A stretch of DNA of 61,797 bases, the filler included, from Dimargaris cristalligena (Eukaryota): NCBI GenBank assembly GCA_003614675.1. It is 3 parts of 3 records of this genome, joined end to end, with 100 filler letters (N's around TTAATTAATTAA, not from the genome) between each part and the next. Parts side by side here need not be neighbours in the genome. Positions count along the whole stretch, not along the records: positions 1 to 20,546 come from ML002694.1; positions 20,647 to 41,186 come from ML002695.1; 1 more part is not named here. One strand, 5' to 3'. Of this stretch, positions 18,644-41,286 are shown piece by piece; positions within the stretch are counted from its first letter, which is position 1; the number at the start of each line of letters is the position of its first letter. Position numbers and translations under genes: made by a program. The notes under the pieces are model-generated. The model saw only the letters and a list, made by a program, of their open reading frames with translations, was not told the DNA's origin and ran no database searches.

Positions 18644-19364
18644 TTAAAAATCGTCGCCCCGGCGGGGAGGCTTGAAGTTGGGGTCCTCGAATTGCCGGGC
18701 CCAGGTCATGGACGGGATCCAACGGCGCGGATACGTCATGCGTTCCTCTTTGGCGGCTGAGAAGGTGAACATCATGAACACCGTAGCCGACAGACCGGCG
18801 AACACGATAGAGGTGTTGGTTTTCCAGTTGGGCGGGTTGGTCCACCAACCACCGGTAGGCGACCTTAATGGGGAGAGAGGTAGAGCGGGTGCGATGATAT
18901 TAAAAAGGGAAATAGAGGGGATTAGTTCAAGGGGTTCATAGAGTAAGTGGGTAACAACTGTACATACAGGCCGGAAATCTAATAACTATATACGTCCTCA
19001 ACCCCTAGCTATAAAATGGTGGGGTGTAACTAGGGTTGGCATTGAATCACCATGGGGTAGACCCTCTCTAATACAGGGAGCGTTCGGTTCAACGAGCCAC
19101 TCTTAACAGTGAACTTACCAGACGTGCTTGGGGTAAATGTAGCGTTTTCCTCCACCCTAATTTATGGAATAATAACGTAAAACAACAGGGCACAATGGTG
19201 AGTTGGGGTTAGTTGGATGGAGCATGCTGCTGTTCAAAGTATATATATATATTTATGTGTGAGACTCAGCACGATGCGGCCGATACGACGGCGACCGGGC
19301 GAGTTCCCAATGGGTGGACAGCAACGAGATTTGAGAGGATTCAAAGGAAAGGGCCGCCTACCAT
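18644..19364 (-). CDS. Mitochondrial complex I accessory subunit, NUUM / NDUFC1(KFYI)-like, 3 coding exons, 86 aa
   Basis: Exons 19364-19362 (ATG only), 19156-19119, 18863-18644 give MGGGKRYIYPKHVWSPTGGWWTNPPNWKTNTSIVFAGLSATVFMMFTFSAAKEERMTYPRRWIPSMTWARQFEDPNFKPPRRGDDF; YPKHVWSPxGGW..P.NWK.NT motif plus one TM helix. Confidence 0.8.
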
Positions 19365-20120
19365 GTTGTTACTTTGAAATGGAACAAGATTATGTTGGTA
19401 GGATTAGAATACAATATATAAGGTTAAGCACAACGATAAGGGTGCATCAATTTGGGTAAATACTAAAGAGAGCCAGGCTGAATCAATTAACTGGAATGGT
19501 CGCAAGGCGATGTAAAGAAGGTCAAAGGAATCAGCAGCACCTGGGAGATTGATCCAAGGCTGAGCAATCTCCTCCAAGTATGCAGTACCTATTTGGTACA
19601 TTGTAGGTCTAGGTGATTCACATTTGTACCAAATGCCCCAACCTCTTTCTCCCACCTTTCTCTCTGTGCTACACATTCCCTTACTATGTAGAAACTAACC
19701 ACCACCCCGCCAGCCCAACTATTTAGCTACTTCGAAAAACTAAACTAGTCGCTAACTTACTAAACCACAGTATGTTCCTGTCCCCCTATTTTGCCTATAA
19801 GAAGTAAAAGAGCGGATAAATTTAGCCATGTTAAAGAAAATTACATCGATAATGTTAAACCCTTTCGAACTGCGATTACGTTTCACTTTCCCGGCTTGTC
19901 CTTGGTGGAAAATATATATAACATCTTTAAGTAACGTCACATCATCAGTTTCTTTCGATAAGGTAAAAAGCGGCGAATTACCTGGCACAAAAAGGGATTG
20001 CATCCCCATTTCTCTCAGGCACGACTCACATAATTCCAAAATGTATATCAAACTAGTTACAAATTGGTCATTCATTTCTAGCAAAAAATCGGTGGATGCC
20101 AATACTCAGTCTGAAGAAAA

Positions 20121-20194
20121 TGTCAAGATCCGGGATCGAACCGGAGACCTTGCGCGTGTGAGGCGCATGTGATAACCAACTACACCATCCTGAC
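20121..20194 (-). tRNA. tRNA-Val (anticodon CAC)
   Basis: Reverse complement GTCAGGATGGTGTAGTTGGTTATCACATGCGCCT-CAC-ACGCGCAAGGTCTCCGGTTCGATCCCGGATCTTGACA folds as a cloverleaf with A/B boxes; T-run follows. Confidence 0.95.
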
Positions 20195-20208
20195 TTTCCT
20201 AATTGTGT

Positions 20209-20546
20209 TGTGACAGGTACTGAACACCCTTAAGCTTTGGTGATGTCACCGATGATGTACCTAACGTCCATTAATCAAATTACTACCGTTTTACTATATT
20301 TAGCTTAGTTTATCAATTGCAATGTCATATCATAGCTATATCCATTTATCACCTTCTATATCATAGTTATATTTCGTTTATCACTTTCTGTTTTCATTCA
20401 TCTCTTTATATATCATTAGTGCAGCGTATTTACCTTTTATCTGAAGTATACAATAGCAGAACCAGCGTAGATAGAATCATCTATTATATTTACTGCCCAA
20501 TATTTTCGGGGTATAAATACCCCTTCAAATCGCAACCTGAATAAAA
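20209..20546 (+). mobile_element. LTR-like segment (5' part), truncated by assembly spacer
   Basis: Begins TGTGACAG; AT-rich; GTATAAATAC...ATCGCAAC...AATAAAA block at 20511-20546 is homologous to 20674-20710. Confidence 0.55.
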
Positions 20547-20646
20547 NNNNNNNNNNNNNNNNNNNNNNNNNNNNNNNNNNNNNNNNNNNNTTAATTAATT
20601 AANNNNNNNNNNNNNNNNNNNNNNNNNNNNNNNNNNNNNNNNNNNN
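20547..20646. other. Artificial 100-bp assembly spacer
   Basis: 44 N + TTAATTAATTAA (20591-20602, stops in all six frames) + 44 N. Confidence 0.97.
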
Positions 20647-20836
20647 GTAGGCTGAACTTCAACCACCTCCTAAGTATAAATACCTCCAAGAATCGCAACT
20701 CTTAATAAAACATCTCTTTTTTCATTCTTCTGAACTGTACCGGTAGTTTTACCTACAGTTATCTTTAGTTCGATTTTACTACATCTTTTGACTATAAGGC
20801 ATTCCCGCCTATTATTATACTAGCCATTCTGCCACA
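20647..20836 (+). mobile_element. LTR-like segment (3' part), truncated by assembly spacer
   Basis: TATA/polyA-like block at 20674-20710; ends CTGCCACA (20829-20836), a 7/8 inverted match to TGTGACAG at 20209. Confidence 0.55.
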
Positions 20837-20854
20837 CCACAATAAAAACAAGAT

Positions 20855-20925
20855 GCATCGATAGTTCAATGGTAGAATTTACGCTTCCCAAGCGTAAGGC
20901 CCGGGTTCGATTCCCGGTCGTTGCA
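20855..20925 (+). tRNA. tRNA-Gly (anticodon CCC)
   Basis: GCATCGATAGTTCAATGGTAGAATTTACGCTT-CCC-AAGCGTAAGGCCCGGGTTCGATTCCCGGTCGTTGCA cloverleaf followed by a T-run Pol III terminator. Confidence 0.95.
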
Positions 20926-20989
20926 CTCTTTTTTATTATCTTCCATGGGGTGGAGAATTGAAAATGCTATGAGAACCACTCGATATGAC

Positions 20990-23400
20990 CATTTATAAAT
21001 AAAGTGCTACTGTGACACAGATAGATGGCTACAACTAGTATTTTTATACATACTTCACTAGCAATTGTTAAAATTTGTGGCCAAGTAGAATATCTAATTT
21101 TGTTGTTCATTAGAGAACACATCCTATTAAAATATCAATCTAGAGTCCAGCCAGCACCCATTACTATATAGATGTTACTAGTTGATGGACTTATAAAGAT
21201 AATGTGGATATAGGTATGCATGAATAGATTAACAATTGAGAGATCATTCTGGTAATATTGGGATGTTCAATCTATTTAATCAATTCAAACCAATCATGGA
21301 AACCTATCTATCACACTCTATACAACTCATGAAGTCTAATATTTTGGTTAATAAGGATATGCCAATATTTTAGTGACATGAATTTTCCTTATGATTGGTG
21401 GGCCTGGGCCATTAATGTAATGAATAGAGCAATGTACCACCTCTACAATTGGCTTCAAATAAATTATATGGGCTGAGTATCCCTGTATACAGGAAGATAG
21501 AATTAATGACAACTAATTTGGCAATCCTTAGACACAAATTCAAAATGGGTCTATGCAAAGTAGGCTAAATTCTGAGGTAGTGATATGCTATACTTAGTAA
21601 TAGCTAGAATTAAGAGCCCCACTCTAATTAACTGATACTTCTTAGACTTAGTCAAGCATTTTTACCCTATTCATAATGTAATAAACCTATATATTATGAT
21701 ATGAAGTTGACTAAGAGTATGGGGTGTAAAATTTAGGAATGTAGTTCATTGAGCTTATAGTGTTTTGCCACTCCAATTGTTAGTGAAGTTGTCTGGGAGT
21801 TAACATAACTTAATATTGTATCAGCTATTCCATTACTCATTTCACATAGTTCAAATCTAAGCTAGTAGCCAATTGTAGGGCTTTAATGTGCTCTATTATT
21901 TAATATAACTATTATACTGTCACCCAGGTTAACCACCCTTAGTCTATCAAGAGTCCTGAGGATAGGCTTCTAATGGTAGGTGGGGCTTAGACTTGGCCAA
22001 GCAGGCTACTAACATCAGGTATAGGCACAGTACTAACTAATAAAGGCTAAGTATAGTTATATTCAAGGGATGTGCAGTGGGCACACTTACTAGTTAGTAC
22101 AAGGGAGTGAGCATATATTAAGCTTATTAAAGTAAACTAGAGGTAAGAATAAGTTAAGGAATCTAACTGGTCCCAATGGGGCCCAGTTATATATATATGT
22201 AGGGATAGCTCTTGAGGGAGGTCCCAAGGGAAGACTACTACTAAGGCTAAGGTATAGGTAAATAGGCCAACTGGGCAGCCACTAGTATCTGGAAGACTCT
22301 GATGGTAACTGGAAGAGTCTTCGGATCAGTACTTGAGTGATTAGTGCAAAGAGCTGGAGTACAGAAGGGGAAGGGTTATATAATATAGGGTAATCCCATA
22401 GTACTGGGGGTGGACTATGGGAAGGTAAATATAGTACTATAAGGCCTACTATAGTTAGATACTAAGCCAGCTGGATTAAGGTGAATTAGATGGCCTAACA
22501 AAGGATGTCAGTCTATTAAAATGATAGAATTTTATAGGAACTTTATTTTTATGGATTTGGATCAGATATCTTATATATTTAGCAGGTGGCTTTATGGTAC
22601 TACACTCTCCATGGCTGATCCATATATTCTTCCAAGACCAATGGATTACCTGAACTGCCTTTACTAATAGAAACTCGTAAGACAAACTCATGTCTACTAG
22701 ATTATGATATATTGCTGTGATAGGATTAGCCCTCATGATAGATGCTTACTTCTAGGCATAGGAATTTAATGTCTAAATAGGACAGGTTTTTTCACTGGCT
22801 CTCAAATGATTGGAATGATTCCCTAGTTTCTTACAATTGGTAGTACAATTTAAGTTTTAGTAATAAAGCAGACTATCAAAGATACTGGTGTTGGTACCAA
22901 TAGGCACATGCCTTGACTATGAAGTAGTGACTTGATAGCATAATTGCTCAACCCACCCAGTGCCTATACACCTTTGATTATACATTAGCATTTATGTGGA
23001 CACCTAAACTACTGTCCACCCAACCCCCTGCCAAAGGCTTAGGCCATCCTTACACTCAACTGGATGTATAATTAATATCAATGAAATTGTAAATTACCTA
23101 GTGTAATCAGTAGCTGATATACCCCAATGCAAACCTATGTTTTTGCCTCCAATTGACATTACTACTGCGGTGCCTGATCACTCAATTTCCCAATAAAAAA
23201 GACTGAATAGGTACTAATAGAGGTGGAACATCTATTCATTGGGTTTATTGTCGCTGTGGTGGTGTGGATATAAGAAAAGGCACCTCAGTGCAAGGTACTG
23301 AAAAGGGGGGGTTTAAAGGAGAGAGTAAACATTTGAACTAAGCTGTCAGCCCCAATGGGAACTTTGTCAGGATATGAGTGTGAGGCTTGGGTACCTTGAA
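20990..23400. mobile_element. Degenerate, CpG-depleted transposon-remnant region
   Basis: AT-rich, about 4 CpG in 2.4 kb by eye, no intact ORF, contains repeat copy B. Confidence 0.6.
22239..22498 (+). repeat. Dispersed repeat copy B
   Basis: Same-orientation homolog of 235-493. Confidence 0.85.
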
Positions 23401-24468: not shown

Positions 24469-25976
24469 ATGTCTTCCTCCGAAACCGATAAGAATGTCGA
24501 GCTATGGAAGATCAAGAAACTGATCAAGAGTCTGCAAATGGCCCGAGGGTAAATGCCAGAGCCAAGTGCGGCCTAAATCTATATCCGGTACTCTACCGCT
24601 TTCATCCGGCATTCATCTGGCCCTAATGTATCCGCACCCCCTAAGGCTGCCCCACCTACTCACCGCATGTTCGACCCATTTTCCTAACCCTCCACCGTCG
24701 CTTCCATATTCTATTTAATCCTGTCCCCGATACCCCCACTTCCGCTGATTCTCACTTTAGCAATGGTACTTCCATGATCTCGCTGGTCATCCCGCCCAAG
24801 GACCAGATCTCCCGGGTCGCTAAGATGTTGGCTGACGAATACGGTACCGCGTCCAATATCAAGAGTCGGGTGAACCGCCTGTCCGTCCTTTCCGCCATTA
24901 CCTCGGCTCAGCAAAAACTCAAATTGTACAACCGGGTTCCCGAAAACGGTCTGGTCGTATACTGTGGTACTATCATCACCGACGAGGGCAAGGAAAAGCG
25001 GGTGAGCATCGACTTCGAGCCCTTTAAGCCCATCAACACGTCCCTGTACCTGTGCGACAATAAGTTCCATACCGAGGCCCTGTCTGAACTCCTCGAGTCG
25101 GATTCCAAGTTCGGTTTTATCATTATGGACGGTAACGGTTCGCTCTTCGGTACCGTCTGCGGTAACACTCGGGATGTTATTCATAAGATGACGGTTGAGC
25201 TGCCCAAGAAGCACGGTCGTGGTGGTCAGTCCGCCCTTCGTTTCGCTCGGTTGCGCGAGGAAAAACGCCACAATTACGTGCGTAAGGTAGCCGAGCTGGC
25301 CGTCCAGTTCTACATTACCAACGATAAAGTCAACGTCACGGGCCTTATTTTGGCCGGTTCCGCCGATTTCAAGACTGAACTAGGTCAGTCCGATATGTTT
25401 GACCAGCGCCTACAGGCCAAGATTATCAAGACCGTCGATGTGTCCTACGGTGGTGAGAACGGGTTCAACCAGGCCATCGAGCTCAGCGCGGAGGCCCTGG
25501 TCAACGTCAAGTTCGTGCAGGAGAAGAAACTCATTCAGCAATACTTTGACGAGATCTCACTGGATACTGGCAAGTACTGCTTCGGTGTGGACGATACCCT
25601 CAAGGGCTTAGAAATGGGCGCCATTGAGACCCTCATCGTTTGGGAAAATCTGGATATCAACCGGATCATCATGAAATCGTCGACGGGCGAGGAGATTGTG
25701 AAGCACCTGACCAAGGTCCAGGAGAAGAACCGCGAGGAATTCCTCGACAAGGATACCGGTGCCGAGATGGAGGTGATTTCCACCATGCCTATGCTCGAGT
25801 GGCTGGCCGAAAAGTACAAGGACTTTGGTGCCAACCTCGAATTCATCACTAACCGCTCGTCCGAGGGCGCTCAGTTCGTCCGGGGTTTCGGTGGTATCGG
25901 TGGGCTTCTGCGTTACAAGGTCGACTTCTCGCAGCTGGTCTTCGACGAAGACGACGAAGACTTCTGGGAAGATTAA
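24469..25976 (+). CDS. SUP45: Eukaryotic peptide chain release factor 1 (eRF1), 2 exons, 431 aa
   Basis: Exon 24469-24548 ([27 protein letters not shown]) + 24761-25976; GTS, TASNIKS, YLCDNKF and GRGGQS motifs all canonical. Confidence 0.97.
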
Positions 25977-41186: not shown

Positions 41187-41286
41187 NNNNNNNNNNNNNN
41201 NNNNNNNNNNNNNNNNNNNNNNNNNNNNNNTTAATTAATTAANNNNNNNNNNNNNNNNNNNNNNNNNNNNNNNNNNNNNNNNNNNN
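41187..41286. other. Artificial 100-bp assembly spacer
   Basis: 44 N + TTAATTAATTAA (41231-41242) + 44 N. Confidence 0.97.

Follow-up and report, generated by a model that had tools for sequence, protein, structure and literature searches.

A candidate LTR retrotransposon family that integrates upstream of tRNA genes in the fungus Dimargaris cristalligena

Introduction

Transposons that insert next to tRNA genes are the textbook case of a "safe haven" in compact genomes. The closest described systems include two LTR elements, Ty3 of Saccharomyces cerevisiae (Ty3/gypsy, Metaviridae, with the sigma LTR) and the Ty3/gypsy-like DGLT-A of Dictyostelium discoideum. As described in PMC5911963, a contact between its integrase and TFIIIB places Ty3 1-4 bp upstream of the tRNA start site, and with the help of Tfc1 it is inserted in both orientations. 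For DGLT-A, the reported position is about 15 bp (13-33 bp) before the start of the tRNA coding region, and both orientations occur (PMC5006619, PMC5911963); the element contacts Tfc4 (TFIIIC) through its RNase H (PMC6101501). D. discoideum is described as having no full-length copies of DGLT-A, and the element is thought to be inactive there (PMC5911963). The other tRNA-targeting LTR elements to be compared are Tj1 (Schizosaccharomyces japonicus), Tyl3, Ylt1 and Tyl6 (Yarrowia lipolytica) and beta/Tca8 (Candida albicans), all of which come from ascomycete yeasts and none from an early-diverging fungus. In Table 1 of a 2018 review, all of the tRNA-targeting LTR elements are from either ascomycete yeasts or Dictyostelium (PMC5911963). 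According to the accounts cited here, tRNA targeting in the ascomycete yeasts and the dictyostelid amoebae arose several times, by different protein contacts (PMC5006619, PMC5911963, PMC6101501).

This report deals with a stretch of DNA from Dimargaris cristalligena that is 61,797 nucleotides long and that will be referred to as the window. D. cristalligena is a fungus that parasitises other fungi, and its lineage split from that of the yeasts near the base of the terrestrial fungi. The original prediction, made from the window sequence, was that two tRNA genes each have an LTR-like terminus at the expected Pol III start site and that these termini belong to a retrotransposon that targets tRNA genes. 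As described below, this idea as a whole is partly supported, and its core holds for the left gene, tRNA-Val.

Sequences and Public Contigs

Five public runs of one organism contain the left contig of the window at 0.96-0.98 of the sampled words. Contigs from four runs, which we call X1, X2, X4 and X5, were mapped to positions 19000-20546 of the left contig. A single sample underlies X1 and X2 and may be the one that was assembled; X4 and X5 derive from other samples, that of X5 belonging to another study. The contig pieces described below are the 32 listed of 410. Flanks were judged by eye to be tRNA-like from U8, G10, A14, GG, A21 and the pairing of the D-stem.

Two tRNA Genes on Separate Contigs

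Two tRNA genes were found by ARAGORN in the whole window, a tRNA-Val gene and a tRNA-Gly gene, and Rfam recovers both of them at the places and on the strands that had been predicted (Table 1). Each gene is followed by a T-run: the one after tRNA-Val, on its own strand, appears on the plus strand as GAAGAAAA at 20114-20120, and the one after tRNA-Gly is TCTTTTTTATT.

What had been taken to be a gap between the two LTR-like segments is really an artificial contig joiner, and an identical joiner is present at 41187-41286. The two joiners indicate that the window consists of three contigs that were glued together. Therefore, tRNA-Val and tRNA-Gly are on different contigs, and their opposed directions and the spacing between them, which had been described as two genes pointing away from each other, have no biological meaning. 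Two independent insertions had been favoured over a single element; this is right, but trivially so, since the segments are on different contigs. A single element spanning the "gap" was rejected because the gap is artificial and because the segments differ upstream of a TATA block that is described below.

The 16 ORFs of at least 150 amino acids in the window belong to housekeeping families only (proteasome, eRF1, DnaJ, PPR, seipin, formyltransferase, PIG-U and others), with no reverse transcriptase or integrase among them. The eRF1 gene, at 24762-25973, is 87-92% identical to those of other Dimargaritales and 100% identical to two D. cristalligena entries.

Table 1. Features of the window near the two tRNA genes, and tRNA-like flanks of public-run contigs that stop matching at the repeat edge
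Feature	Position	Strand	Basis or run	Remarks
tRNA-Val(CAC) gene	20121-20194	minus	ARAGORN; Rfam RF00005	59.9 bits
Spacer, presumed native tRNA leader plus target-site remnant	20195-20205	none		11 nt, TTTCCTAATTG; between tRNA-Val 5' end and repeat edge
LTR-like repeat, 5' part	20206-20546	plus	Public-run contigs	341 nt; ended by contig end
TG terminus of left repeat	20206-20216	plus		TGTTGTGACAG
Tandem duplication in left repeat	20327-20389	plus		32 nt
Artificial contig joiner	20547-20646	none		44 N + TTAATTAATTAA + 44 N; non-genomic
Related LTR-like segment, 3' part	20647-20839	plus	Sequence likeness	193 nt; begun at contig start
Putative CA terminus	20829-20839	plus	Mirrored left terminus	...CTGCCACACCA
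Spacer, putative LTR end to tRNA-Gly	20840-20854	none		15 nt, CAATAAAAACAAGAT
tRNA-Gly(CCC) gene	20855-20926	plus	ARAGORN; Rfam tRNA	66.2 bits
Thr-like flank	20197		X1 and X4	Spacer 12 nt
Ala-like flank	20196		X2	Spacer 9 nt
Asp/Glu-like flank	20208		X1 and X2	Spacer 10 nt

A High-Copy Repeat Upstream of tRNA-Val

The k-mer depth of the unique flank at 19000-20091 is 45 in X1, 80 in X2, 123 in X4 and 177 in X5, and in the bins that cover the tRNA gene the depth is 296-1700. The tRNA-Val unitigs (20119-20194) have a depth of 848 versus 177 for the flank in X5 and of 629 versus 123 in X4, which corresponds to about 3-5 copies of the gene sequence. Since the depth of the tRNA is merely 3-5 times that of the flank, the tRNA is not part of a high-copy repeat.

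The DNA beyond the gene has depth sums of 14,079-77,463 in the bins at 20196-20546, where summed contig depth is not equal to copy number. Exact unitigs are also very deep: the unitig at 20242-20366 has a depth of 9337 in X1, which is 207 times the flank, and the unitig at 20235-20397 has a depth of 9335 in X2, which is 117 times the flank. The left segment, which had been predicted to be part of a repeat, is multi-copy by this measure, and the number of near-identical copies is roughly 100 or more.

The repeat has a sharp edge. Twenty-six contig ends stop matching at 20196-20208 (among the 24 listed of 51 loose ends), and 18 of the 26 listed ends stop exactly at 20206 (five in X1, seven in X4, four in X5 and two in X2). 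The flanks at 20206 are mutually unlike, with an agreement of 0.52-0.67. Ends that stop at exactly this base and that have unlike flanks indicate that the repeat starts at T20206, with TGTTGTG. This edge lies 3 nt before the core end originally placed at 20209, and its distance to tRNA-Val is 11 nt and not 14 nt. The left segment combines multi-copy dispersal with a constant, sharp terminus, as LTRs do.

The copy number of the tandem duplication inside the left repeat differs among the copies of the repeat, as judged from a joint at 20315-20356 and from loose ends at 20341 and 20393. U3 regions often vary in the copy number of such tandem duplications. A motif like the terminus is also present within the repeat, at 20480-20502. 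A nested second insertion that starts at 20503 was considered and rejected, as the exact 60-mer unitig at 20468-20527, with a depth of 8667 in X2, is as deep as the repeat is elsewhere. The CpG O/E of the left repeat is 0.93, and an exact 25-mer of it has 0 matches in metagenome contigs.

tRNA Genes at the Repeat Edge

Five of the 26 listed contig ends can be read singly, and these represent three distinct flanks. All three of them are, by eye, the reverse-complemented 5' halves of tRNA genes: one is Thr-like, one is Ala-like and one is Asp/Glu-like (Table 1). In addition, X4 has a second tRNA-Val copy (a loose end behind 20194) in which the gene is identical and has upstream of it a similar spacer of 10 nt, then TGTTGTG and then a different sequence. 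This copy looks like a related repeat family at the equivalent spot.

At no fewer than four different tRNA genes, the edge of the repeat and the 5' end of the gene are 9-12 nt apart, and the tRNA always points away from the repeat. Termini confined to a few bases upstream of different tRNA genes are known from Pol III-targeting elements. Thus, for the left segment, the predicted link between the TG end and tRNA genes stands, and the motif next to tRNA-Val is part of the repeat rather than a promoter box standing by itself.

The remaining 21 of the 26 listed ends were combined into consensus lines with CAA-rich ends (...CACAACAACAT and similar), and no tRNA can be read in these merged flanks at the expected spacing. 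Most of the readable diverged copies may not be beside a tRNA in the same orientation. CACAACA is the reverse complement of the first seven bases of the repeat, and it resembles CACACCA, the end of the right segment. The CAA-rich flanks may be head-to-tail LTR junctions with ~4 nt between the LTRs, or they may be the far side of insertions in the opposite orientation. Head-to-tail junctions would be expected if new copies land at a constant distance from the tRNA and push the older LTRs outward.

A Related Segment Upstream of tRNA-Gly

An inverted match of 13/15 between 20202-20216 and 20829-20843 had been predicted and is present in the sequence. The motif CTGYCACAMCACAAT has only two matches in the window, even if two mismatches are allowed, and a match as good as the one between the 40-nt stretches adjacent to the tRNA genes was obtained in six of 5000 shuffles and in six of 5000 random pairs of 40-mers from the window. 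The left terminus, TGTTGTGACAG, and the reverse complement of the right terminus, TGGTGTGGCAG, are identical at 9 of 11 positions. The TG start is seen on the left copy and the putative CA end on another, related copy on the other contig. By mirroring the left edge, we infer that the right segment ends at A20839, which is 15 nt from tRNA-Gly.

Both sides had also been predicted to have a common TATA plus polyA-like block, and the two blocks (20511-20546 and 20674-20710) are indeed 81% identical over 37 nt, with a BLAST E value of 0.003-0.005; the block has two matches in the window versus 0.01 expected. The block includes TATAAATA at 20512-20519 on the left and at 20675-20682 on the right, and AATAAA at 20540-20545 and at 20704-20709, respectively, so that the TATA to AATAAA spacing is 28-29 nt in both segments. 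We predict that the TATA would be the promoter and the AATAAA the poly(A) signal inside an LTR. Between the two segments, the TATA/AATAAA block is direct and the terminus is inverted, as is expected of LTRs in the same orientation that are seen from the 5' end in one case and from the 3' end in the other. The TATA to AATAAA direction points away from the tRNA on the Val side and towards the tRNA on the Gly side. This arrangement would mean that insertion occurs in both orientations, as it does for Ty3 and DGLT-A.

The left and right segments have in common just the 37-nt block and the terminus, and self-BLAST of the window finds no further copy of either segment. The CpG O/E of the right segment is 0.74. 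We infer that the right segment is also a repeat from its likeness to the left segment and from the contig break within it. Each of the two contigs stops within its segment, presumably because the short-read assembly broke in so common a repeat.

Interpretation and Alternatives

The explanation that we prefer, with a probability of roughly 0.68, is that these segments belong to a family of LTR retrotransposons whose insertions fall at a set position upstream of tRNA genes, in the manner of Ty3 and DGLT-A, with one end per copy in view. The window shows neither a second LTR nor gag-pol, and likewise no polypurine tract, primer binding site or target-site duplication. With one end per copy and no coding part in the window, the segments could also come from a tRNA-gene-targeting mobile element of some other kind, for example a non-LTR element with a defined tRNA-facing end, a TIR DNA transposon or a MITE. 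Non-LTR elements with a fixed position upstream of tRNA genes are described at about 50 bp and at about 4 bp (PMC5006619), and TRE5 at 44-54 bp and in the opposite orientation (PMC5911963); short terminal inverted repeats would fit a DNA transposon. TRE5-A and the other dictyostelid non-LTR elements (~4 or ~50 bp) are like the present repeat in having a fixed place and a fixed orientation upstream of tRNA genes, but they have neither TG...CA inverted termini nor a TATA/AATAAA LTR core. Unlike TRE5-like elements, the repeat has an edge that is sharp and constant, that starts with TG and that has an inverted counterpart, and neither terminus has an A-tail or a simple repeat. TATA followed by AATAAA at a conserved distance in segments that otherwise differ is the usual core of an LTR, for which a MITE or the 5' end of a LINE would have no use. 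Moreover, in the related segment the terminus at the far end is inverted, and the inner block is in direct orientation. Taken with the apparent TG...CA ends, these features make a non-LTR element or a DNA transposon unlikely.

The 21 listed flanks that are not readable as tRNA would fit a common dispersed repeat that does not target anything and that is found near tRNA genes by chance or because it survives in harmless AT-rich intergenic DNA. However, four different tRNA genes have the same terminal base at a distance of 9-12 nt and share one relative orientation, the second tRNA-Val copy with its related terminus adds to them, and retention bias would lead to loose neighbourhoods and not to a 4-nt window, so that we consider a repeat of this type quite improbable. 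CAA-rich motifs occur around Pol III start sites in the tRNA genes of yeasts and in plants. The spacers begin with CAAT in the tRNA sense at tRNA-Val, at its second copy and at tRNA-Gly, as they might if tRNA genes had CACAAC(A)CAAT as a native element upstream, at the start site, and the match were unrelated to repeats. However, 11 of the 15 motif bases are inside the repeat, and only the outer four (CAAT) could by themselves be native leader; furthermore, contigs with unrelated, non-tRNA flanks begin matching exactly at 20206 and continue for 70-110 nt. These results largely refute the native element for the left gene, and overall we find it hardly credible. A SINE, or a duplication of a tRNA together with its flank, was rejected as well because the tRNA points away from the repeat, because its depth is raised only 3-5x and because different tRNA species carry the repeat.

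A Proposed Mechanism

If the segments are LTRs, each tRNA gene would abut one end of an LTR, either a solo copy or the outer of the two LTRs in a full element. Two related retrotransposon families would be represented, both inserting ~9-15 nt upstream of the mature tRNA 5' end; the predicted identity of the segments as LTRs comes from the putative TG...CA ends, the short terminal inverted repeat and the internal TATA followed by AATAAA. In such a layout, the 5' LTR would supply the promoter and the 3' LTR the poly(A) signal. The AATAAA would be at or before the transcript start in the 5' LTR and would, for that reason, be used in the 3' LTR only. By analogy with the known systems, the integration complex may be tethered at tRNA genes through TFIIIB or TFIIIC of the Pol III pre-initiation complex, and integration may take place at or beside the Pol III start. 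Repeated insertion at one gene, together with LTR-LTR recombination, would then give rise to solo LTRs and to head-to-tail LTR arrays.

The near-identical copies suggest recent activity. More tentatively, D. cristalligena might harbour a recently or currently active LTR lineage in which Ty3-like targeting evolved on its own, with near-identical copies numbering in the hundreds in a ~30-Mb genome, with head-to-tail arrays at Pol III starts and possibly with a tether that is unlike those of Ty3 and DGLT-A.

Comparison with the Known Systems

The candidate family is like Ty3 in that an LTR end abuts many kinds of tRNA genes within an upstream window of a few bases and in that solo LTRs would be left behind. 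It differs from Ty3 in its host, which is a member of the Zoopagomycota and not of the Ascomycota, and in copy number, which is in the hundreds by depth whereas yeast has few copies. The distances also have different reference points, the 9-15 nt reported here being measured from the mature tRNA 5' end. DGLT-A is likewise an LTR element that is located shortly upstream of tRNA genes; however, its host is an amoebozoan that has no full-length copies, whereas the Dimargaris copies are near-identical. One of the cited papers concludes that high copy numbers are the exception among tRNA-linked elements (PMC5006619), and the very high copy number of the left repeat contrasts with that conclusion as it is given there.

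Judged by the listings found in literature searches on Zoopagomycota, Kickxellomycotina, Dimargaris, Mucoromycota and early-diverging fungi, there is no report of tRNA targeting in Zoopagomycota or Dimargaris. A term search of the main text of two genome papers finds no mention of tRNA and a single, general mention of transposons. Apparently, this is the first such case outside the yeasts and the slime moulds. As judged from its sequence features, it probably belongs to a familiar kind of element, found here in a lineage that is new for that kind.

Conclusions

The Kickxellomycotina genomes are described as small (20-30 Mb for the Dimargaritales) and repeat-poor (2-6%), and it is in such genomes that targeting of tRNA genes is believed to be advantageous. 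The repeat also has a practical consequence in that it presumably breaks the draft assembly at tRNA genes; therefore, the neighbourhoods of tRNA genes would be systematically truncated in this genome. If it is true, the Zoopagomycota case would provide a distant fungal lineage in which to test whether tRNA targeting is an old or a convergent trait of fungal Ty3/gypsy elements, and it would also bear on the question of which Pol III factor serves in the targeting.

Copy variation in the left repeat

The high-copy, LTR-like left repeat (20206-20546) was compared with contigs from public sequencing runs that match positions 19000-20546 of the left contig; the points at which these contigs depart from the window sequence are referred to here as loose ends or joints. 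The tandem duplication within the repeat varies among the copies, with a 40-nt skip and with units gained or missing in the public-run contigs, as indicated by a joint at 20315-20356 and loose ends at 20341 and 20393.

The repeat also contains a terminus-like motif that is similar to the 3' terminus of the right segment, the related LTR-like segment upstream of tRNA-Gly(CCC). Other copies read ...CTACCGCACAAT or ...CTACCACACAAT at this motif (loose ends 20477 and 20487). The motif was considered as a boundary of the repeat and ruled out, because an exact 60-mer that spans it (20468-20527) has a depth of 8667 in run X2. An old duplication of the terminus within the repeat may have given rise to it.

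Among the loose ends listed before 20203-20206, most flanks of the diverged copies have CAA-rich endings (...CACAACAACAT and ...CACAACAACAA), as read from merged consensus lines rather than from single copies. These flanks resemble the 3' end of an LTR followed by about 4 nt, in which case the LTRs would form head-to-tail arrays.

Features of the left repeat and joiners between the contigs
Feature	Position	Location or type	Composition
Tandem duplication	20327-20389	within left repeat	32-nt
Terminus-like motif	20480-20502	within left repeat	TCTATTATATTTACTGCCCAAT
Joiner	20547-20646	artificial	44 N + TTAATTAATTAA + 44 N
Joiner	41187-41286	artificial	44 N + TTAATTAATTAA + 44 N

Contig joints and CpG-poor stretches

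The two joiners link the three contigs of the window, the middle part being 20,540 nt, and any feature read across either of them is an artefact. The eRF1 gene of the second contig (24762-25973) is also present on an 88,847-nt contig of a second D. cristalligena assembly, and genomes exist for D. verticillata, D. xerosporica, Tieghemiomyces parasiticus and Dispira species.

Directly downstream of tRNA-Gly is a CpG desert (20981-23250), whose only CpGs are at 20981, 22322, 22676 and 23168 and which holds the longest CpG-free gap in the window (1341 nt); over 20927-22400 the CpG O/E is 0.04 and the GC content is 0.355. None of the 14 ORFs of at least 45 aa in the desert has a Pfam match, and a search for internal repeats there found none. 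The desert may be an old element decayed by methylation. The LTR-like segments upstream of the tRNAs are not depleted in CpG (O/E 0.93 for the left repeat and 0.74 for the right segment). The second longest CpG-free gap, 586 nt at 597-1183, falls in the first, AT-rich part of the window (GC 0.379 over 1-2000).

A second tRNA-Val gene

A loose end behind 20194, the 5' end of tRNA-Val(CAC), leads in public run X4 to a second copy of this gene that is identical in sequence. It is preceded by a similar 10-nt leader, then TGTTGTG and then sequence unlike the left repeat. The arrangement suggests that a further family of this type occupies the same position.
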